From assembly GCF_056712565.1 (NCBI RefSeq), contig NZ_CM160072.1: 64,000 bases of DNA, one strand, 5' to 3'. Shown piece after piece: positions 1,891 through 48,158 of the stretch. The translations under genes and the position numbers were made by a program. The notes beneath the pieces are model-generated. The model did no database searches, was not told where the DNA came from, and saw nothing but the letters and a program-made list of their open reading frames with translations. Every line of letters starts with the position of its first letter. The stretch's first letter is position 1.

Positions 1891-2118
1891 ATGCGTAATA
1901 CCGAAATCCGTAGTTTTAACACTGATAGCGATGCGCTGGCCGTATTGCTGACCGATGCAAAAAAAGAAGAGCGTAAAGACCGCGCGCTCGCTGTTTCCAT
2001 CCGCCTTGAGGCGCTGGCTATCCATATTACCAGAGAGGGAATGAGCGGCACCGAAGCTGCCGAACTGCTGCGCCGTGAAGCAACCCGCTTTGAGAATGAA
2101 TCACAGGAGCTGCACTAA
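1891..2118 (+). CDS. hypothetical phage early protein
   Basis: 75-aa ORF, stop overlaps start of next gene (ATGA 2115-2120 region). Confidence 0.4.
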   Translation: MRNTEIRSFNTDSDALAVLLTDAKKEERKDRALAVSIRLEALAIHITREGMSGTEAAELLRREATRFENESQELH

Positions 2119-2339
2119 TGGCCGACGCAATGGATTTAGCACAACTGCGCGAGCAGGAAGACCGCGAACGCCACATCAGCAACGCACGCACCCGTATCGC
2201 TGCACCTTCCCGTTTTCTTTGCGAGGAATGTGACGCACCAATCCCGGAAGCTCGCCGCATTGCGATTCCGGGCGTGGCTTTTTGCGTAACCTGCCAGCAA
2301 ATCGCAGAGCTAAAAAACAAACACTATCGGGGGGTATAA
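2118..2339 (+). CDS. TraR/DksA-family C4 zinc-finger protein
   Basis: 73 aa with CEECDAPIPEARR...FCVTCQ (CxxC-N17-CxxC) typical of phage TraR-like proteins. Confidence 0.55.
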   Translation: MADAMDLAQLREQEDRERHISNARTRIAAPSRFLCEECDAPIPEARRIAIPGVAFCVTCQQIAELKNKHYRGV

Positions 2340-2340
2340 A

Positions 2341-4563
2341 TTGGCTGTTCAATTCGCTTATCCGTGGAACGTCCCACGGTCGGCAATCTCCAGCCCATAC
2401 CTTACTTATGAGCAACAGCATCGCCGCGACCGTATGTTCGCGGCTTTGCTGCATGCAAAAAAGGTGCTTTCTCTCCAGCCCGACTGCGTGCGGTTAGATG
2501 TTTATCGCACTGCTGCGGTGCTGGAGCAAAATCAGGGTAGTCAACGAGCCAATGCATTTTTAATCAGCTTCTGCAAAAAGGCATTGCCGCGTCTTGAACT
2601 GGTCGCAAAAAAATACGAATGCGCTGGTATCAACAGCAAGGTATCAACCGCTGTTTTTGGAAGTCATTTTGATACTCAGCAAATGCAATATCTGTCGTCA
2701 CGCATGGTTAATATGGTCGCCCGATATAACCGTCTCCCGGACATGTCGCGCGCTGATGTTGACCTGTTGGCCGCTGATATTGCTAATTTCATTCGTGGTG
2801 AACTTGCCAACATTAATGACCACGGATTCGGCGAGCTTAAAACGCTGTACACCTGGTATATTCGTGCTGGCTTTATTTCCCTCCAATTCAACGTTATCCC
2901 ACCACATTGGGAGCGGGTTGAAAAAAAATATGTCGGTGCGGATGAAATCGCACCGGCTATCGCCAAAATGTTTAACGATGGGTGGTGGCGCGGTCGTTTG
3001 CGCCGTGTAGCAGCTACGTGGCGCGAACACCTGCAAATTGCAGTCGGCAACGTCAGTAAGAAAAAAAACACTTACGCGAGTAAAAACTGCGTGACTGACT
3101 GGCGTGAACAAAAGCGCCGCACTCGTGAATTTCTCAAAGGTCTGGATCTCGAAGACGAAGACGGCAACCGTATCAGCCTAATTGAAAAATATGATGGCTC
3201 AGTTGCTAACCCTGCGATTCGCCGCTGTGAGCTCATGACCCGCATTCGTGGGTTTGAAAACATCTGTAATGAGCTCGGTTATGTCGGTGAGTTTTACACT
3301 CTAACCGCGCCGTCAAAATATCACGCCACGACTAAAGCCGGTTACCGTAACAGCAAATGGAGCGGTGCCAGCCCGGCTGACACGCAAAACTATCTAACCG
3401 GTATCTGGGCGCGTATCCGTGCCAAACTACATCGGGAAGATGTCCGTATTTTCGGTATTCGTGTCGCCGAGCCCCATCACGACGGCACTCCACACTGGCA
3501 CATGCTGATGTTCATGCTGCCGGAAGATGTTGAATATGTTCGCTCCATCGTCCGTAAATACGCATGGAAAGAAGACCGCCACGAACTGAAAAGCGATAAA
3601 TCCAAAAAAGCACGTTTCCACGCGGAGTCCATTGACCCGGAGAAAGGCAGCGCAACCGGCTATGTTGCTAAATACATTTCAAAAAATATCGACGGTTATG
3701 CTCTCGATGGTGAAACCGATGATGAAAGCGGTGAGCTGCTGAAAGAGACAGCCCCCGCCGTTTCAGCATGGGCTGCGCGCTGGCACATCCGTCAGTTTCA
3801 GTTTATTGGTGGTGCGCCGGTGACGGTTTACCGTGAGTTGCGTCGCCTCGCTGATACCGAAACCGCGCACGGTCTGAGCGTTGAGTTTGCCGCCGTCCAT
3901 GATGCCGCCGACGCTGGTGACTGGGCTGGTTATGTTAATGCTCAGGGTGGGCCGTTTGTCCGTCGCGATGATTTACAGGTGCGCACACTGTATGAACCGC
4001 GTACCGAGCTTAATCAGTACGGTGAGGAAACGGTATGTATTAAGGGGGTCTACGATTCCTCCATAGGTGCAGGAAGCCCGATTTTAACCCGGCTCACTCA
4101 GTGGAAGATTGTTCCGAAGCGTGCTGTTGATTTGCCCGTTGACCTTCAGGACGGCAAAGCCGTCCCTCGGAGTTCTGTCAATAACTGTACGGGAAGCGAA
4201 AGCGATCCACCGATACTGGATTTAACAAAACCACTGAGTCGGCGTGAAAGACGAGAATTGACCAACCGACTCAGGAAGCAAAAGCCAGCAGCACGGCGAA
4301 AATTCATCCACGGAACGGATGAGCAAAACGCAGCTATAGCTAAAACTATCGATGAGATACATCTGACAACCGGCATTAATATCAGCCGGGGCGAAGCCCT
4401 GCACCTGATGGCCGGTGGTAAAAGTTGTTTTGATGGTAAATGGCTACGCGGAACGGCCAAAGGAGAAATATTTTCCGCAGCACCATCGCATGAGGCTAAA
4501 GCTCGGAAAATCCTTAATCGTGTTGCGGCGATGGCTGAAGCATTAAAACCAATACATGAGTAA
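2341..4563 (+). CDS. A: replication initiation endonuclease (P2 gpA family, rolling-circle initiator)
   Basis: 740-aa ORF (TTG start in track; true start may be downstream ATG); motifs PHWHMLMF and YVAKYISKN (active-site Tyr region) as in gpA. Confidence 0.8.
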   Translation: MAVQFAYPWNVPRSAISSPYLTYEQQHRRDRMFAALLHAKKVLSLQPDCVRLDVYRTAAVLEQNQGSQRANAFLISFCKKALPRLELVAKKYECAGINSKVSTAVFGSHFDTQQMQYLSSRMVNMVARYNRLPDMSRADVDLLAADIANFIRGELANINDHGFGELKTLYTWYIRAGFISLQFNVIPPHWERVEKKYVGADEIAPAIAKMFNDGWWRGRLRRVAATWREHLQIAVGNVSKKKNTYASKNCVTDWREQKRRTREFLKGLDLEDEDGNRISLIEKYDGSVANPAIRRCELMTRIRGFENICNELGYVGEFYTLTAPSKYHATTKAGYRNSKWSGASPADTQNYLTGIWARIRAKLHREDVRIFGIRVAEPHHDGTPHWHMLMFMLPEDVEYVRSIVRKYAWKEDRHELKSDKSKKARFHAESIDPEKGSATGYVAKYISKNIDGYALDGETDDESGELLKETAPAVSAWAARWHIRQFQFIGGAPVTVYRELRRLADTETAHGLSVEFAAVHDAADAGDWAGYVNAQGGPFVRRDDLQVRTLYEPRTELNQYGEETVCIKGVYDSSIGAGSPILTRLTQWKIVPKRAVDLPVDLQDGKAVPRSSVNNCTGSESDPPILDLTKPLSRRERRELTNRLRKQKPAARRKFIHGTDEQNAAIAKTIDEIHLTTGINISRGEALHLMAGGKSCFDGKWLRGTAKGEIFSAAPSHEAKARKILNRVAAMAEALKPIHE

Positions 4564-4637
4564 TTCATATCCATATCATGCACATACAGCAATCGCTCTA
4601 TTCGTTTTTTTTCTTCCCATCTTTTGCCAATACGTGC

Positions 4638-4657
4638 TACTGTATAAATATACAGTA
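4638..4657. promoter_or_regulatory. LexA (SOS) box overlapping sigma70 promoter for tum/dinI-like operon
   Basis: TACTGTATAAATATACAGTA = CTGT-N8-ACAG palindrome; -35 TTGCCA (4625-4630) and -10 TATAAAT inside the box; RBS GGGAGGGAT then ATG 4677. Confidence 0.6.
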
Positions 4658-4676
4658 ACCCTATGGGAGGGATTTC

Positions 4677-4859
4677 ATGGTTGGCGAACATTTCAGCCGA
4701 ACGCAGCAAAAGTGGGCTTGTGTGCAATTTATTGCCGAGGTATCTCTGATTGCAAACTGCAAGCCATCAGACTTAAAGCTCGCGCTCACTCTCATTGCAG
4801 ACCTAGCAAACAGCGAAAATAACGAAACCGAAGATGATAATTTTTATAAGGCTGATTAG
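4677..4859 (+). CDS. Tum-like N-terminal segment (putative antirepressor part), ends at in-frame TAG
   Basis: 60-aa ORF directly downstream of LexA box; TAG 4857-4859 then ATT then ATG 4863 in the same frame. Confidence 0.4.
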   Translation: MVGEHFSRTQQKWACVQFIAEVSLIANCKPSDLKLALTLIADLANSENNETEDDNFYKAD

Positions 4860-4862
4860 ATT

Positions 4863-5093
4863 ATGAGAATCAATATCACGTTGGATAAAGAGCAAAAATT
4901 AGGGCAACAGATCATTGATGCTTTTCAGAATGAAATAACACATCGAGTACAATGCGTTTTTCCTGCAACAAAAGTTAACGTTAAGAAAGGGTCAATGACT
5001 GGTGTAGAGGCTATCGGATTCGATAAAGAGGCGGACAGAGAAACATTAGGCAGCATATTACAAGAGATTTGGGAAGACGATAGCTGGCGTTAA
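4863..5093 (+). CDS. DinI-family protein (Tum C-terminal domain-like)
   Basis: 76 aa MRINITLDKEQKLGQQIIDAFQNEITHRVQCVFP...LGSILQEIWEDDSWR matches DinI pattern (MRIEVTIAK...ISEILQETWESADDW) from memory. Confidence 0.6.
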   Translation: MRINITLDKEQKLGQQIIDAFQNEITHRVQCVFPATKVNVKKGSMTGVEAIGFDKEADRETLGSILQEIWEDDSWR

Positions 5094-5126
5094 ACATAAT
5101 AACCGTGCTGGCGCAAAAACTAGCTT

Positions 5127-5576: not shown

Positions 5577-6518
5577 TTAATTTATTTTTAATGAATGGTA
5601 ATCTCGTGAGTTGACCGAAGATTTGAGATAACTGCAATCATTAACCGACAGTATTGCCGCTAATAGGCGACATACCAGTGCCTGCATTTGCAGCAATATA
5701 TCGTTACCATATTGACTGTTGTTAACACTTGAGAAACCAAGCGGTTGACCAAAAAAAATAGCCTCATGAAAATTATCATTGCGGATGCCAGAAATGTTTT
5801 TTTTACCTGACACCCATGTGGGGATTGATAACCCATAAATTTTGCACATCCACTTTAATCGCTTGTAATGATTTGGCGGTTTTTTATCAGGAGCCTTGTC
5901 ATGCTCAGCCCACGACAAAGCAAAGCACCCATCAAGTGCCATGTAAAGATACTGGAATTTTTCAAAAGAAAGGTATTGTGGGTTTTGAGATAAGAATAGT
6001 GCATGCACCACTGCCGCAATTCTTTTGGGGGAGTGCGCATCCTTATGTTTGCCATTTATATAATTAAGAGCCAGTTCTATGACTTCTTTTTCAGAGCATC
6101 CAACGAGAATAAAGTCGGTTAACTTAGTGGGCTTGATAGTGGTTGCATCTAAAAAACCAGCGTCAGTGGTTGTCAATCTTATTCCCTTGAAAAAAGAAAG
6201 GCACCACACAATAAAGTTGAGAGTTTCTAACGAGGATGTATTTTTTAATTTTAGTGTGTGCGTTTTGGGCATACTGAATACTCGGTGACTATAAGGCATT
6301 GTGGATATGCCACCATTAAGGTTATATACATCTTGGTTTCCAGGGTATATCCAACCTTTCACAACGTTTTTATCATTATTAACACGCTCCACTTTCTCAT
6401 TGAGACCAGGTAAAGTAAGCAAAGAAAATTGTTCAGTCTCAATGTTAACTTCTACTGGATAGTATCCAAACTCCGACATAATCTCATTGGGTTGCTGTTC
6501 GTCAACTTCACCTTGCAT
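5577..6518 (-). CDS. hypothetical cargo protein, 313 aa, with RNxxxH motif (possible HEPN-like)
   Basis: AT-rich ORF unlike flanking phage DNA; motif GIRNDNFHEAIFF (R-x4-H) near C-terminus; no other recognisable domain. Confidence 0.6.
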   Translation of the reverse strand: MQGEVDEQQPNEIMSEFGYYPVEVNIETEQFSLLTLPGLNEKVERVNNDKNVVKGWIYPGNQDVYNLNGGISTMPYSHRVFSMPKTHTLKLKNTSSLETLNFIVWCLSFFKGIRLTTTDAGFLDATTIKPTKLTDFILVGCSEKEVIELALNYINGKHKDAHSPKRIAAVVHALFLSQNPQYLSFEKFQYLYMALDGCFALSWAEHDKAPDKKPPNHYKRLKWMCKIYGLSIPTWVSGKKNISGIRNDNFHEAIFFGQPLGFSSVNNSQYGNDILLQMQALVCRLLAAILSVNDCSYLKSSVNSRDYHSLKIN

Positions 6519-6541
6519 ATCTTTCTCCGTTCAAAAATAGG

Positions 6542-6557
6542 CTCGATAATTATCGAG
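6542..6557. promoter_or_regulatory. perfect 16-bp palindrome upstream of the 313-aa gene (candidate operator)
   Basis: CTCGATAATTATCGAG, 24-39 bp upstream of start codon at 6518 on reverse strand. Confidence 0.35.
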
Positions 6558-6755
6558 AGGCTATCATGTTTGGAAAGAACCAATGTCCGTAATTTTTGTA
6601 AATTTAAGGTGATTTATCAATAAATAAGCTGTGCATGCAACAGGTGCATGGTTCTGCATGCGCCGGGGTTACCCGTTTTGTACGTGCGCCGCAAGAGCTG
6701 GCGGGGATCCAGAGTGGTCATGCAACTGCATTAAAACCGCCCCATAAAGCGGGCA

Positions 6756-6774
6756 GGCGTGGCGGGGAAAGCAT
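6756..6774. other. cos: cos cohesive-end sequence, 186 type
   Basis: GGCGTGGCGGGGAAAGCAT equals the 19-nt 186 cohesive end as recalled (P2 GGCGAGGCGGGGAAAGCAC); in GC-rich non-coding stretch between A-side cargo and portal gene. Confidence 0.6.
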
Positions 6775-6993
6775 TGCGCGTCAGCAGTGATGCGTAATAA
6801 TAAAAATTATCCTCTGAGCGCGTCGTGATGGCGCTGTCGTGGTCGCTGCTGGTTCGTTGGTGGTCGGGTGTGTTCGTGCGCGTGAGACGCATCTGATGCG
6901 TGATGGTGGTGTGCATGGAAAAGCCACCAGGAGCAGCGGCTTTACAGGAGTGGCAGGATTCAAACTGCTAATTATGTTTCTACTATGATTAAA

Positions 6994-40561: not shown

Positions 40562-40924
40562 GGGGCTGATTCTGGATTCGACGGGATTTGCGAAACCCAA
40601 GGTGCATGCCGAGGGGCGGTTGGCCTCGTAAAAAGCCGCAAAAAATAGTCGCAAACGACGAAAACTACGCTTTAGCAGCTTAATAACCTGCTTAGAGCCC
40701 TCTCTCCCTAGCCTCCGCTCTTAGGACGGGGATCAAGAGAGGTCAAACCCAAAAGAGATCGCGTGGAAGCCCTGCCTGGGGTTGAAGCGTTAAAACTTAA
40801 TCAGGCTAGTTTGTTAGTGGCGTGTCCGTCCGCAGCTGGCAAGCGAATGTAAAGACTGACTAAGCATGTAGTACCGAGGATGTAGGAATTTCGGACGCGG
40901 GTTCAACTCCCGCCAGCTCCACCA
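40562..40924 (+). ncRNA. ssrA: tmRNA (transfer-messenger RNA)
   Basis: Starts GGGGCTGATTCTGGATTCGACGGG, contains tag ORF region (GCAAACGACGAAAACTACGCTTTAGCAGCTTAA), ends GGGTTCAACTCCCGCCAGCTCCACCA; 363 nt. Confidence 0.9.
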
Positions 40925-41356: not shown

Positions 41357-41361
41357 ACAAC
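41357..41361. repeat. IS2 target-site duplication, left copy (ACAAC)
   Basis: 5 bp ACAAC immediately left of IS2 terminus; identical copy at 42693-42697. Confidence 0.7.
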
Positions 41362-41452
41362 TAGACTGGCCCCCTGAATCTCCAGACAACCAATATCACT
41401 TATTTAAGTGATAGTCTTAATACTAGTTTTTAGACTAGTCATTGGAGAGCAG

Positions 41453-41818
41453 ATGATTGATGTCTTAGGACCGGAGAAACGCAGACGGCGTACCACACAG
41501 GAAAAGATCGCAATTGTTCAGCAGAGCTTTGAACCAGGGATGACGGTCTCCCTCGTTGCCCGGCAACATGGTGTAGCAGCCAGCCAGTTATTTCTCTGGC
41601 GTAAGCAATACCAGGAAGGAAGTCTTACTGCTGTCGCCGCCGGAGAACAGGTTGTTCCTGCCTCTGAACTTGCTGCCGCCATGAAGCAGATTAAAGAACT
41701 CCAGCGCCTGCTCGGCAAGAAAACGATGGAAAATGAACTCCTCAAAGAAGCCGTTGAATATGGACGGGCAAAAAAGTGGATAGCGCACGCGCCCTTATTG
41801 CCCGGGGATGGGGAGTAA
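41453..41818 (+). CDS. insC: IS2 OrfA (InsC, HTH transposase part)
   Basis: [56 protein letters not shown]... Confidence 0.85.
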
Positions 41819-42681
41819 GCTTAGTCAGCCGTTGTCTCCGGGTGTCGCGTGCGCAGTTGCACGTCATTCTCAGACGAACCGATGACTGGATGGATGGCCG
41901 CCGCAGTCGTCACACTGATGATACGGATGTGCTTCTCCGTATACACCATGTTATCGGAGAGCTGCCCACGTATGGTTATCGTCGGGTATGGGCGCTGCTT
42001 CGCAGACAGGCAGAACTTGATGGTATGCCTGCGATCAATGCCAAACGTGTTTACCGGATCATGCGCCAGAATGCGCTGTTGCTTGAGCGAAAACCTGCTG
42101 TACCGCCATCGAAACGGGCACATACAGGCAGAGTGGCTGTGAAAGAAAGTAATCAGCGATGGTGCTCTGACGGGTTCGAGTTCCGCTGTGATAACGGAGA
42201 AAAACTGCGAGTCACGTTCGCGCTGGACTGCTGTGACCGTGAGGCACTGCACTGGGCGGTCACTACGGGCGGCTTCAACAGTGAAACAGTACAGGACGTC
42301 ATGCTGGGAGCGGTGGAACGCCGCTTCGGCAACGAGCTTCCGGCGTCTCCAGTAGAGTGGCTGACGGATAATGGTTCATGCTACCGGGCTAATGAAACAC
42401 GGCAGTTTGCCCGGATGTTGGGGCTTGAACCGAAGAGCACGGCGGTGCGGAGTCCGGAGAGTAACGGCATAGCAGAGAGCTTCGTGAAAACGATAAAGCG
42501 TGACTACATCAGTGTCATGCCCAAACCAGACGGGTTAACGGCAGCAAAGAACCTTGCAGAGGCGTTCGAGCATTATAACGAATGGCATCCGCATAGTGCA
42601 CTGGGTTATCGCTCGCCACGGGAATATCTACGGCAGCAAGCCAGTAATGGGTTAAGTGATAACAGGTGTCTGGAAATATAG
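41776..42681 (+). CDS. insD: IS2 OrfB (InsD, DDE transposase catalytic part)
   Basis: 301 aa overlapping orfA in -1 frame, typical IS3-family arrangement. Confidence 0.85.
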
Positions 42682-42692
42682 GGGCAAATCCA

Positions 42693-42697
42693 ACAAC
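42693..42697. repeat. IS2 target-site duplication, right copy (ACAAC)
   Basis: See left copy. Confidence 0.7.
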
Positions 42698-42839
42698 CGA
42701 ATGCCGCAGCAGGTAAGATCACGCTAGGGGGGCTGGACAGAATGGCTGTTACGCCCAGTGTGAAGAAAAGAAGGCTAAGTATGGTAGAATTTCCATACGC
42801 ACAGACCTTGTTATCCGACTATACAGCCTGGAAGGCACT

Positions 42840-43628
42840 ATGACAAATCTACAACTGGAAGAAAGATTTAGGGCGCTTGAGAAAGATTACGATGCGCTCA
42901 TTTCCACAAAATATACTGCGCAGAACGTTCTCACTCACACTATGGAAACCTATGTTGATTCTGGTAAATATAAAAACTGGATCGCCAGAGTGAAAAAGTT
43001 AATAGAGGACAGCTACGGAAAAGAGTCTGATTATTACAATGACTTCAATACTGTAAACAGCAGGTGGTCTTCTAATTACAATACACTGATCAAAAGTTAT
43101 AAACCGTTGTTTGATGCGGCGAGAGATGATCTTGCGCACTCTGCTGTCAGTACTAATACTCCTCAAGAAGGTTCGCCGCTGAGCCTCGTACTTAATATTC
43201 TTAACAGGTTTCCGACCTTTGTTCGCCAGTTAAAGAGGCGGTACAACGGCCGTGCGCCGCTTGAAGTTAATGATGAGTATGACGTACAGGATTTGATTTA
43301 TGCACTGCTGACGCTTCATTTTAATGATATTAGGGCGGAAGAGTATACCCCCAGCTTTGCGGGCGCGGCCTCAAGACAGGACTTTCTTTTGAAAAAAGAG
43401 AAAATTGTGATAGAGGTGAAGAAAACCCGTGAATCTCTGGGAGCGGGTAAAGTTGGTGGAGAGTTGCTTATTGATATGGCGCGCTACCGCGCTCACCAAG
43501 ACTGCGATACGTTGATCTTGTTTGTATATGACCCGGATTGCTACATAAATAATCCTTTGGGCGTGAAAACCGATCTGGAATCTAAAGACGCGGAAGGAAA
43601 AGTGAAGGTTGTTATTGCGCAGTTCTGA
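42840..43628 (+). CDS. hypothetical protein with putative PD-(D/E)xK nuclease core in C-terminal half
   Basis: 262 aa; candidate motifs E-YDVQDLIYALL, RQDFLL and IVIEVKK (D...ExK); helical N-terminal half; motif-level call only. Confidence 0.55.
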   Translation: MTNLQLEERFRALEKDYDALISTKYTAQNVLTHTMETYVDSGKYKNWIARVKKLIEDSYGKESDYYNDFNTVNSRWSSNYNTLIKSYKPLFDAARDDLAHSAVSTNTPQEGSPLSLVLNILNRFPTFVRQLKRRYNGRAPLEVNDEYDVQDLIYALLTLHFNDIRAEEYTPSFAGAASRQDFLLKKEKIVIEVKKTRESLGAGKVGGELLIDMARYRAHQDCDTLILFVYDPDCYINNPLGVKTDLESKDAEGKVKVVIAQF

Positions 43629-43715
43629 CACGCTTAAGTGTCACCTTACAGGATTAGGTTTGCGGCCGTGCCAGCAGGACGAGCATGAAAAAGGCCGCTG
43701 GCACGGCCGGATTTG

Positions 43716-44219: not shown

Positions 44220-45044
<825 letters not shown>

Positions 45045-45140: not shown

Positions 45141-45200
45141 TCGTAGCTCGCCATCATGGGGTGTCGGGGGGCGGAGGTTCAAATCCTCTCGTGCCGACCA
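45141..45200 (+). other. tRNA-Pro 3' fragment (about 60 nt, anticodon-stem to CCA end), att-like remnant, not a complete tRNA
   Basis: catggggtgtcggggggcggaggttcaaatcctctcgtgccgacca matches recalled proL 3' 46 nt with one mismatch; 5' acceptor/D-arm region diverged. Confidence 0.6.
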
Positions 45201-45213
45201 AAAATCCCTTAAG

Positions 45214-45241
45214 AACCAGCCTATTATGGCTGGTTTTTTTA
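45214..45241 (+). terminator. intrinsic terminator following the tRNA-Pro fragment
   Basis: AACCAGCC-tattat-GGCTGGTT followed by TTTTTTT. Confidence 0.6.
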
Positions 45242-45441: not shown

Positions 45442-45620
45442 ATGCGTATTGAGATCTCCATAGCCAAAGACAAAATGACCAAATGCCAAACGGCGCTGTG
45501 GACGCGTTAAAGGAAGAATTAACCCAACACATTGGCAAGCGTTATGACGATGTGGAGATGATCGTAAAAGCCACCAGCAACGATAGTTTTTCAGTTAGAC
45601 ATACTGCAGATAAAGATTGA
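45442..45620 (+). pseudogene. DinI-like small gene with apparent frameshift (two overlapping short frames)
   Basis: [14 protein letters not shown] (frame 1, stop 45508-45510) continues in another frame as [37 protein letters not shown]; resembles DinI N-terminus from memory. Confidence 0.35.
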
Positions 45621-46044
45621 GCTAAAACTTTCGTTCAGGAAACTCTGAATGATACCTGAGAGTCTACTGAAGAGTTGTTTGTTCACTAGTTAGCACGTAG
45701 GAAATCATTCAATACTCGCACTATCGGAAGTTCACCAGCCAGTCGTAGCACGTCCTTGCAAACGACGTGCCTACGGTTTCAATCACCTCTCACCATCAAT
45801 TCTATCAATAATAATTAAACAGCGCCTAGACAAAATAAATAACAACAAGTCAACAACCTCGACAGGATGCCGATGGGATGATGAAGAGATAAGAAAGAAT
45901 AACCAGTAAAGCCCTAAAACGTCAGCGTTCAGACGCGTTTTTTACTTAATCGGTAACAAATACGTTGTATCATAGCAAAATAAAATGATTGTTCTAAATC
46001 AGATTAACTCCTCACTTTTGTACAATGTCGCTTACAGGTATACC

Positions 46045-47934
46045 ATGAAATCCGAGACGCTAACTGTCCAACAACTTTTTCAAGACCGCCGACAATACTG
46101 TGTTCCATTCTATCAACGTGCCTATGTATGGACTCAGCAAGACCAGTGGTCAGCTCTACTGGAGGATATCCTAGAGAAAGTACAATCCCGGCTCTCGGGT
46201 ACAAAACCAACTCCCCATTTCCTTGGTGCGGTTGTACTGGAACCTCAATCAAAAAAAGGATTATTAGGTGTAGATTCCATACATATTATTGATGGTCAGC
46301 AACGATTGACCACTCTTCAATATGTTCTGGCATCCATCCGATTAGCATTACGTGCTACGGATCTTTCCAGCTTAGAGGCTCTCATTTCGCCTTGCCTGAA
46401 AAACTCAAACGAAGACACAATGCGAAATAAAGAAGTAGAACGCTTCAAACTGTGGCCAACTTTTCGGGATCAAACTCATTTTATTCAAAGTTTTAATGTT
46501 GAAAATATTGACGATCTCCGGGACGTATTCTCTGATAGTTTCACGCAGCATGGTACGTTGCGTAAGCATTTTAATCACCCGCCATCACTAGAAGCATTAT
46601 GTTTTTTTACTGAAGCCTTTATAAAATGGATTAAAATAGAAAACCACTCACCACAAGAAAATGCTGTAGCTCTAATTGAGGCTGTCTTAACAGATCTGAA
46701 ACTGGTAAGCATATTTCTCGAAGCTGAAGATGATGCCCAAATAATTTTTGAAACATTAAATGGGCGAGGGGCGGAACTTCATGCTACGGATCTTATTCGC
46801 AACTATATCTTTATGTGCGCTGAGCATGAAAATATTAATGCTATTGAATTATATGAAAATGAGTGGAAGAGCTTTGAAGATAAATACTGGTCGGAAAAAC
46901 AACGCCGTGGACGTATTAATAAACCACGCATGGAGTGGCTAGTACATGCGACATTGCAATCAGAAAGGCAACGTGAAATTGATCTGTCTCGCCTTTACAA
47001 TGAGTATCGTGATTATGTAAGTAAGGACTTGTCTTCACAACGAGCAGATCTGCAAGTAAAGCGCCTCAAACAATATGCATCACAATATAAAGAATTGGTT
47101 GATGGTTTTGGCACAACCCCCATCTCACACTTTGGATATCGCATCGCAGACTATGATGTGACGACACTTTATCCGCTTGCTTTGTTCATTTCGATAGCTA
47201 ACATCGCTGATGATGAGAAAGCAGCCATGTATAATGATCTTGTCTCCTACGTAGTACGAAGAGCCGTATGTGGCCTGACGCCAAAGAATTACAACAATGT
47301 ATTTATGAATGTATTGCGGCACTTGGCTAAAACGGAAATTTCCAGTGTTGAGTTACGTAATATCCTCAATAACTTAAATGGCGAAGCCTCACGTTGGCCT
47401 GGTGACTCAGAATTTCTCAACGCTTGCATCAATGCTCCACTTTATCCTGGCAGGCTCGACGCACCGAAAATGCGCTCAATGTTAACGGAACTTGAAAGAG
47501 AACTTTGTCGCCAAGTAAAGACAGAAAAGCCTGATGTTCCAAATCTTTCTAATCTCGATATCGATCATCTTATGCCTCAAAGTTGGTATTCCTGTTGGCC
47601 TCTCGAAAATGGTCGTATGGTGACAAATTCAGATGCTACGGTATTGAACCAAATTGTTCTGTCTGGAACCGATCTTACCCCTGAACAGCTACTGGTAAGG
47701 AAACGGCAACAAGCGATATCTACTTTGGGAAATCTAACTTTGCTTAACCTTAGCGTAAACCGTTCTGTTCAGAATGCTGTATTTCTGAAAAAACGTGATG
47801 CTCTCATCGTCCACACCAATCTACGACTGAACATTCCACTTATAGTTAAGGATAAATGGGATGAGGATGAAATCCTGGAGCGGGGTAAAAAGTTGGGGGA
47901 AATTGCATTGAAAGTATGGCCAAAACACGATTAA
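46045..47934 (+). CDS. GmrSD-family type IV (modification-dependent) restriction endonuclease-like protein (DUF262 + DUF1524/HNH)
   Basis: N-terminal YCVPFYQRAYVW and DGQQR (DUF262/ParB-like); C-terminal DIDHLMPQSW (His-Me/HNH-like); start taken at ATG 46045. Confidence 0.7.
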   Translation: MKSETLTVQQLFQDRRQYCVPFYQRAYVWTQQDQWSALLEDILEKVQSRLSGTKPTPHFLGAVVLEPQSKKGLLGVDSIHIIDGQQRLTTLQYVLASIRLALRATDLSSLEALISPCLKNSNEDTMRNKEVERFKLWPTFRDQTHFIQSFNVENIDDLRDVFSDSFTQHGTLRKHFNHPPSLEALCFFTEAFIKWIKIENHSPQENAVALIEAVLTDLKLVSIFLEAEDDAQIIFETLNGRGAELHATDLIRNYIFMCAEHENINAIELYENEWKSFEDKYWSEKQRRGRINKPRMEWLVHATLQSERQREIDLSRLYNEYRDYVSKDLSSQRADLQVKRLKQYASQYKELVDGFGTTPISHFGYRIADYDVTTLYPLALFISIANIADDEKAAMYNDLVSYVVRRAVCGLTPKNYNNVFMNVLRHLAKTEISSVELRNILNNLNGEASRWPGDSEFLNACINAPLYPGRLDAPKMRSMLTELERELCRQVKTEKPDVPNLSNLDIDHLMPQSWYSCWPLENGRMVTNSDATVLNQIVLSGTDLTPEQLLVRKRQQAISTLGNLTLLNLSVNRSVQNAVFLKKRDALIVHTNLRLNIPLIVKDKWDEDEILERGKKLGEIALKVWPKHD

Positions 47935-48029: not shown

Positions 48030-48158
48030 CTAGGTCTCGGACTTTGTACCGCTTATCTTGTCTTCAAAAATCAGCTCGCATCCTGCACAGTTCAGCGCAT
48101 TACGTTGTAGATCTGTGTTCTGGTCATTTGTTGACACACGTACATAGCCAATAAGCAT
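48030..48158 (-). pseudogene. pin: truncated serine DNA invertase gene (Pin/Gin family), N-terminal 42 codons only
   Basis: MLIGYVRVSTNDQNTDLQRNALNCAGCELIFEDKISGTKSET then TAG; matches recalled Pin/Gin N-terminus incl. catalytic Ser region; RBS GGGAGA upstream. Confidence 0.7.

Follow-up and report, generated by a model that had tools for sequence, protein, structure and literature searches.

A solitary PF18742 nuclease gene in an ssrA-linked Escherichia coli prophage as a candidate one-gene defence system

We analysed a 64,000-nucleotide stretch of contig NZ_CM160072.1 (RefSeq assembly GCF_056712565.1), referred to here as the window, in which an open reading frame (ORF) at positions 42840–43628 encodes a 262-residue protein made up of a helical N-terminal domain and a C-terminal PD-(D/E)xK nuclease domain of Pfam family PF18742. 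Our results favour, at about an even chance, a reading in which this protein would be a self-contained DNase carried by mobile elements, acting as a one-gene defence or exclusion system that is gated by its fast-evolving N-terminal domain. Nothing in the sequence itself is anomalous; what emerges is a credible and very widespread candidate for single-gene defence. The nuclease domain is the known part of the protein, since it has already been characterised and is an effector in the BPAN and Detocs immune systems, and it is the stand-alone variant that differs.

A PF18742 nuclease domain behind a variable helical domain

PF18742 (REase_DpnII-MboI) matches residues 117–261 of the protein with E = 4.5e-48, covering positions 3–149 of the 150 in the model. 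The protein therefore belongs to a named family, which the original prediction of its function had been unable to supply. The same family was present in 120 of the 120 homologues listed, and a Pfam scan at E ≤ 10 returned PF18742 alone, with no separate DpnII family match and no receiver domain. The C-terminal domain is also matched by phrog_29450 (7e-52) and by the PADLOC Aga_Helical-REase profiles (1e-26), the latter over residues 100–258 against profile positions 212–372 of 378 and thus over the C-terminal domain only. NCBIfam gave no match better than E = 0.015 and none to a restriction-enzyme model, and a PADLOC PDC-S35 hit at E = 0.023 was not significant.

The only solved structure related by sequence is that of EcbAgaN (PDB 23wq; E = 2e-4 with a single sequence and 6e-6 with a profile), and the alignment to it spans the C-terminal domain only. 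Counted along this alignment, D181, E192 and K194 correspond to D298, E309 and K311 of EcbAgaN. EcbAgaN is a dimeric, Mn2+-dependent DNase of two domains with an unstructured link between them, and it is the effector of the long-B Argonaute system BPAN (Song et al., PMC10620215). It is non-specific and cuts single-stranded, double-stranded, plasmid and genomic DNA to short fragments, with E. coli DH5alpha as a source of the plasmid and genomic substrates (PMC10620215). Its D298A and E309A-K311A variants lose both DNA cleavage and BPAN-mediated cell death (PMC10620215), so the D and ExK residues singled out by the original prediction align with residues that are experimentally essential. Detocs, too, has PF18742 among its alternative effector domains (bioRxiv 10.1101/2023.01.24.525353, Fig. 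S8). Taken together, the alignments strongly argue that the PF18742 domain is the catalytic effector of the 262-residue protein, with D181, E192 and K194 as its active site. By homology, the enzyme should depend on a divalent metal for its DNase activity and show little sequence specificity.

The nuclease domain comprises residues 113–262 (43176–43625, + strand). In an alignment of 29 sequences reaching down to 41% identity, four stretches of it contain invariant columns: DEYDVQD at residues 145–151, E167-E168, R179-x-D181-FLLK and I-E192-x-K194-K. The same motif columns are invariant in 16 longer relatives too. They correspond to the order of motifs (an acidic element, DFLL, then IVIEVKK) that had been read from the letters alone. 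The DEYDVQD helix (43272–43292, +) is the counterpart of the EY-VQ helix of EcbAgaN and is a candidate for the first acidic or metal-ligand element. D181 is encoded by the GAC codon at 43380–43382 (+), within the motif RQDFLL, and the E192-V-K194 codons of IVIEVKK lie at 43413–43421 (+).

An AlphaFold2 model of the full protein, built from the 29-sequence alignment, has a mean predicted local distance difference test score (pLDDT) of 84. The C-terminal domain is predicted to be alpha/beta, with the restriction-endonuclease-like core fold of PF18742 and the PD-(D/E)xK clan. Foldseek supports the nuclease fold weakly, with Can2 and CdiA-CT ranking top, and the fold is also common to the repair and recombination nucleases NucS, MUS81, Bax1 and XisH. 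The PF18742 match, the conserved motifs and the EcbAgaN alignment all bear out the PD-(D/E)xK core that the original prediction had placed in the C-terminal half. That prediction was staked on the presence of the core in a structure model; the model retains it, and the nuclease assignment therefore stands.

The N-terminal domain, residues 1–100 (42840–43139, +), was expected to be helical and proves so in the model, as an up-down helical bundle of four helices (residues 3–21, 41–59, 64–70 and 79–98) with a beta-hairpin insert at residues 25–38. Modelled by itself, it reaches a pLDDT of 89 and a predicted template modelling score of 0.79. It has no match among Pfam, NCBIfam or PADLOC families, and a profile search with this domain alone returned only 13 fragments, all from the same family, by a word-index search that may miss full-length proteins. 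The domain is presumed to be a regulatory, sensor or oligomerisation module. It is joined to the nuclease domain by a linker, residues 101–112 (43140–43175, +), for which disorder is predicted (pLDDT below 50 at residues 102–110) and whose length varies among homologues as alignment indels.

The two domains have diverged at different rates. Mean pairwise identity across the 29-sequence alignment is 64% in the C-terminal domain versus 42% in the N-terminal domain, and against the most distant members of the alignment it is 50–59% versus 23–43%. Across the wider family, the nuclease domains of distant representatives remain 50–60% identical, and similarity in the N-terminal region soon becomes undetectable. 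The rate of nonsynonymous substitution (dN) in the N-terminal domain is roughly twice that in the C-terminal domain. Longer relatives (346–709 residues) likewise have the restriction endonuclease (REase) domain at the C-terminus, behind unrelated N-terminal regions with essentially no Pfam match. From these domain identities, dN values and longer relatives, the general design of the family is a variable N-terminal module joined to a conserved C-terminal DNase.

The coordinates and length of the ORF (+ strand, ATG start, TGA stop, 262 residues) agree with the original prediction; the gene is solitary, and its two-domain product is identical to RefSeq WP_000183405.1, which is annotated as "PD-(D/E)XK nuclease domain-containing protein" or "hypothetical protein". 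In a collection of 5.8 billion proteins, 2483 homologues were found at E ≤ 1e-3, and a representative library held 2728 clusters at 50% identity, mostly of 244–300 residues. Pairwise Nei-Gojobori comparison of enterobacterial alleles gave ratios of nonsynonymous to synonymous substitution (dN/dS) of 0.12–0.38 for the N-terminal domain (residues 2–100) and 0.05–0.12 for the C-terminal domain (residues 113–262). The ORF is a real gene under purifying selection that is stably maintained. Many database records call members of the PF18742 nuclease family "malate dehydrogenase"; Pfam sees only PF18742 in them, and the naming looks like a propagated misannotation.

Expression signals flank the ORF on both sides. 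A Shine-Dalgarno sequence, GGAAGG (42830–42835, +), can be read directly 4 nucleotides 5' of the ATG. Further upstream, an extended −10 element recognised by eye (TGgTAGAAT, 42782–42790, +) is a candidate native promoter; our consensus promoter scan, which requires a −35, did not list it. Downstream, a long GC-rich hairpin at 43662–43710, between the nuclease ORF and a convergent 97-residue ORF, is likely to be a bidirectional terminator.

Carriers, neighbours and the island at ssrA

In a survey of about 100,000 species genomes, 402 matched with strict motifs, and the loci of 80 of these 402 were fetched. The 80 loci come from Proteobacteria, Bacteroidota, Firmicutes, Cyanobacteria, Planctomycetota, Verrucomicrobiota, Acidobacteria, Spirochaetes and Actinomycetes, and they include four archaeal genomes (Methanosaeta, Methanomethylovorans, Methanobrevibacter and Hodarchaeota). 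Outside the closest relatives, these proteins are 37–63% identical to the E. coli protein. Horizontal transfer has spread the gene across bacterial phyla and archaea. Within E. coli, 112 of 5426 complete genomes carry it at ≥99% identity, always on the chromosome, and it is present in prophages of the extraintestinal and avian pathogenic (ExPEC/APEC) strains UTI89, S88 and APEC O1.

Several kinds of mobile element carry the gene. There are 367 matching plasmid records. On the IncX backbone, the homologue sits between a resolvase gene and an Abi_2 gene, near partition genes, and SMODS/SLATT, ApeA, RiboL-PSP or TIR genes lie a few kilobases away; on other plasmids, the homologue adjoins Abi genes. 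The IncX and chromosomal alleles share about 64% identity overall. In filamentous (inovirus) prophages of Providencia heimbachae (locus L005) and Yersinia ruckeri (L007), it lies at the end of the element, beside the gII/gV replication module, in both cases at 6001–6792 and with 42–51% identity. These two prophages also encode a secretin, Zot, a single-stranded DNA-binding protein and Rep, and in both a small ORF of 62–67 residues, conserved between the two genomes, precedes the homologue. Further inovirus-like contigs in IMG/VR carry a homologue, and 28 IMG/VR contigs, derived from prophages, carry the gene in all. Many large plasmids of E. coli and E. fergusonii (about 90–165 kb) hold only an N-terminal remnant (residues 1–70, 57% identity), indicating that the gene is often truncated there.

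We clustered the ORFs within 3.5–4 kb of the gene in the 28 viral (IMG/VR) loci, 9 plasmid or genome loci and the 80 species loci. No neighbour family was common beyond near-identical loci among the 28 viral and 80 species loci; the largest recurrent group, an OLD/AAA-type ATPase, occurs at 6 of the 80. In a Pfam census of the 146 nearest neighbours, every family was limited to four of them at most. The neighbours that do recur (UvrD/AAA_19, PIN, DUF2971, AAA_15/AAA_21/OLD-TOPRIM, HEPN_AbiU2, RiboL-PSP and integrases) are typical of defence islands or mobile elements. DUF2971 lies directly downstream of the nuclease gene at three Pantoea loci (L039, L040 and L044) and at IMG/VR loci L019–L023. 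It is the sole adjacent family to recur across unrelated locus groups, in too few cases to be called a partner.

Three kinds of linked component were considered and rejected. An operon partner was set aside because nothing was conserved in either the clustering or the census. A restriction–modification system was rejected as well: a crude motif search within 4 kb found a candidate methyltransferase near only 4 of the 80 loci, and the census of 146 neighbours contained no methyltransferase family. An RNA antitoxin or regulatory RNA was likewise dismissed, as Rfam detected only transfer-messenger RNA (tmRNA) at the locus and a repeat search found no repeat array. Neither an Argonaute nor a kinase was found in 108 related loci, and the neighbours in the window island, UTI89 and S88 include no Argonaute, histidine kinase, methyltransferase or antitoxin.

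In the window, the gene lies in an island of low G+C content (0.39–0.46) that starts, with its prophage cargo, directly after the integration site ssrA, the tmRNA gene (40562–40924, +). The order following ssrA is the same in the window, UTI89 and S88: the nuclease gene, the 97-residue ORF, PD-T4-3, a DinI-like pseudogene, a DUF262/GmrSD-like enzyme, an invertase remnant and then myovirus-type prophage tail genes. The nuclease gene lies at the end of the prophage proximal to the attachment (att) site. Its immediate neighbour, the 97-residue ORF (WP_000174562.1; 43716–44009, −), is convergent with it and has no Pfam, PHROG or PADLOC match. Its occurrence is confined to the window, S88, L011 and L041 (E. 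coli, Enterobacter/IMG-VR locus); the equally close Pantoea loci lack it, as does L010. Since it accompanies no more than some of the close homologues, it cannot be counted as an obligate partner.

Two further nucleases follow. A full-length GIY-YIG nuclease of the PD-T4-3 family (44220–45026, −; PADLOC 8.6e-137; RefSeq name "LEM-3-like GIY-YIG") represents a validated anti-T4 defence gene, and PD-T4-3 is reported to be modification-dependent (PMC12366544). The DUF262/GmrSD-like protein of 649 residues (45985–47934, +) is matched over its whole length by PADLOC mREase_IV (E = 0) and, by this match, belongs to the type IV methyl-directed restriction enzymes as a fused GmrSD-type protein. Together with the PF18742 gene, these two genes make up a three-nuclease defence row at the prophage end. 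The DinI-like pseudogene (45442–45659, +; a frameshift and an internal stop) and the truncated invertase/recombinase remnant (48036–48158, −), both located from the annotation of the identical UTI89/S88 sequence, indicate that the prophage is decaying near the defence genes.

The surrounding sequence also bears traces of other integrations. At 45157–45240, a 3' tRNA-like fragment (GGAGGTTCAAATCCTCTCGTGCCGACCA) is followed by a hairpin and a T run; ARAGORN called no tRNA there, and the fragment is probably an att-site scar. If so, at least two integrative elements have contributed to a mosaic island downstream of ssrA. In S88 (L001, 37–8570), a P2/186-like prophage lies between ssrA and the island and encodes a replication endonuclease, a Dam methylase, CII, Fil, CI, an integrase and a 407-residue hypothetical protein. 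The 3' end of ssrA is duplicated in S88 at L001 8525–8570, which, with this prophage, shows that the elements occupy the ssrA site in tandem.

Upstream of the nuclease gene, the window carries a 1331-bp insertion sequence (IS), the IS3-family element IS2 (41362–42692, +), with transposase ORFs in the same orientation as the gene, 32-nucleotide imperfect terminal inverted repeats and 5-bp ACAAC duplications at 41357–41361 and 42693–42697. Between the end of IS2 and the ATG lie 147 nucleotides, or 142 counted after the target duplication, so the 143 bp given in the original prediction was essentially right. The same site is uninterrupted, without IS2, in S88 and UTI89, and the IS2 junction of the window occurs in no complete RefSeq E. 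coli genome, indicating that the insertion is strain-specific. The candidate extended −10 lies intact between IS2 and the ORF. Because IS2 ends upstream of this plausible element, the native promoter has probably survived the insertion, and it is unproven that IS2 alters expression.

A different arrangement is found in strains SCU-116, MS20673 and Eco_23-2678, in which an independent IS2 lies about 42 nucleotides upstream of the ATG, downstream of the candidate −10, and a second IS3-family element lies inside the 3' end of the ORF. In SCU-116 (L038) this double arrangement spans 1894–5101. The gene is inactivated in these three strains, which says nothing for its regulation in the window strain. 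Such disruptions are compatible with the gene being costly, although this evidence is anecdotal.

A gated DNase and the alternatives

In the mechanism we favour, the four-helix N-terminal domain of about 100 residues, held on its flexible linker, would restrain the nuclease, oligomerise it, or both. A cue derived from an invader would release the nuclease from this restraint, and the freed enzyme would then degrade either the DNA of the invader or all cellular DNA, the latter amounting to abortive infection. By analogy with EcbAgaN, the enzyme is probably dimeric. An adjacent partner gene is not needed. A bolder version holds that proteins of about 260 residues with a four-helix N-terminal domain and a PF18742 domain may be a separate single-protein immune system, present in both bacteria and archaea, in which the N-terminal domain would sense the invader cue directly and unleash a collateral DNase, as a free-living form of the BPAN and Detocs killing module. 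We offer this version tentatively, with rather more doubt than belief.

Several observations weigh against a role in gated defence. A tblastn search of the GenBank phage collection found no homologue, and PADLOC-DB v2.0.0 (2023) contained no stand-alone system model that matched, only the Aga_Helical-REase effector profiles. The structural analogues of the N-terminal domain are generic four-helix bundles, none of them informative. Positive selection on this domain was not shown, its omega values of 0.12–0.38 being those of purifying selection, and an arms-race sensor role is thus not demonstrated. A few strains have IS elements inserted in the gene or close to it, which shows that it is dispensable. 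Guilt by association is weak evidence in itself, and no functional study of this architecture turned up in the accessible literature, where PF18742 led only to the Detocs preprint, DpnII-MboI only to an unrelated Wolbachia paper, and the protein accessions to nothing.

The main rival, which we consider unlikely, is a type IV modification-dependent nuclease whose N-terminal domain would read a modified base, such that only modified invader DNA is cut; cutting of this kind would require neither a methylase nor an immunity gene. The solitary state of the gene is in keeping with such an enzyme, given that a conserved methylase is missing from the species loci and from the Pfam census, and so is its position in one row with PD-T4-3 and the GmrSD-like enzyme, both of them modification-dependent nucleases. 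However, the N-terminal domain is modelled as a small four-helix bundle that resembles no known base reader. Known readers of modified bases have other folds, namely SRA, PUA/EVE/YTH, winged helix and ParB-like. The domain is also more variable than would be expected for a reader of one fixed chemical mark, and the BPAN effector uses the same domain as a collateral DNase that attacks ordinary E. coli DNA without specificity.

Occurrence on mobile elements is equally what one would expect of a toxin or addiction module that stabilises its element or excludes competitors, with an unrecognised small gene or RNA, or tight self-inhibition, as the antidote. The gene is always found on such elements, whether in the IncX backbone by partition and resolvase genes, at the ends of filamentous prophages or as prophage cargo; its closest structural relatives include the CdiA-CT DNase toxins; and the occasional IS disruptions and the N-terminal remnants on large E. 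coli plasmids are further points in favour of a toxin. We nonetheless find this decidedly improbable. No small neighbour is conserved across the 28 viral and 80 species loci, the 97-residue ORF accompanies only some close homologues, and neither an Rfam RNA nor a repeat array lies near the gene. The dN/dS values, moreover, fit a stably maintained protein.

There is only a slim chance that the protein is a DNA-processing enzyme of the mobile element itself, serving structure-specific cleavage, recombination or the resolution of replication intermediates, with no part in conflict. NucS, MUS81, Bax1 and XisH share its fold, and in filamentous prophages the gene adjoins the replication module. Yet its carriers are element types that are unrelated and replicate in different ways, together with chromosomal defence islands, and it lies outside the conserved core of any one element family; its nearest characterised homologue, furthermore, is a collateral DNase.

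Slimmer still is the prospect that the protein is an effector orphaned from BPAN or Detocs, whether as a decayed remnant or as the trans-acting partner of a sensor encoded elsewhere. Although PF18742 is common to bAgaN and the Detocs REase effectors, the PADLOC bAgaN profiles match only the C-terminal domain, Pfam detects no receiver domain, and neither an Argonaute nor a kinase lies near the gene in the window, UTI89 or the 108 related loci. The solitary form of about 260 residues is, in addition, the dominant architecture of the family and is under purifying selection.

A type II restriction nuclease of the DpnII/MboI kind, from which the Dam methylase of the host would protect, is suggested by the Pfam family name and by the Dam-positive state of enterobacterial hosts but is exceedingly improbable, because no DpnII family matched at E ≤ 10 and no NCBIfam restriction-enzyme model matched at all, homologues without a linked methylase occur in Bacteroidota, Clostridia, cyanobacteria and archaea, and EcbAgaN degrades the DNA of E. 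coli DH5alpha, a Dam-positive strain.

If autonomous defence by a gated DNase proves to be correct, a very widespread single-gene system would be added to the known repertoire, archaea included, and the collateral DNase of Argonaute and two-component immune systems would be seen to be gated by a minimal domain of 100 residues. It would also explain why the gene is kept in the IncX backbone, in ExPEC/APEC prophages and in filamentous prophages, and would provide a compact, triggerable DNase for tool building. If, instead, the protein belongs with the ordinary type IV enzymes or with addiction toxins, the result would be a routine annotation.

Comparison with known systems

The closest characterised relative, bAgaN (EcbAgaN), has a homologous C-terminal PF18742 REase domain whose D...EVK motif is identical and aligns residue for residue, and it shares the layout of an N-terminal domain, a flexible link and then the REase. 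Its N-terminal domain of about 210 residues, however, is twice the length of the roughly 100-residue domain described here and has no detectable homology to it. In the absence of an Argonaute partner, the guide-RNA-directed activation of BPAN cannot apply. In Detocs, the DtcC effectors with a REase domain likewise use PF18742 as the immune output domain, but the effectors of that system have a receiver domain at the N-terminus and rely on two adjacent gene products, the kinase DtcA and DtcB; the 262-residue protein lacks all of these.

Other comparisons place the protein among nucleases of different make-up. Can2 and Card1, the ancillary nucleases of type III CRISPR systems, sense cyclic oligoadenylate through a CARF domain, whereas here the N-terminal domain is a four-helix bundle without CARF. 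CdiA-CT toxins of the EC869 type pass from cell to cell and are counteracted by the product of a neighbouring immunity gene, CdiI, in contrast to the 262-residue protein, which has neither a delivery domain nor a conserved immunity gene. The PD-T4-3 and GmrSD-like neighbours resemble it in being stand-alone nucleases that have no methylase and lie in the same island, but their catalytic folds, GIY-YIG and a DUF262 protein with an HNH-like domain, are unrelated to that of the PF18742 protein. The 262-residue protein has no recognisable modified-base reader domain. Shedu differs in its nuclease, which is DUF4263 rather than PF18742, and neither Pfam nor PADLOC gave a Shedu match for the protein. 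Nevertheless, we take Shedu to be the closest functional analogue, in that it, too, is a single gene whose product ends in a conserved PD-(D/E)xK nuclease, preceded by a variable region that presumably gates its activity.

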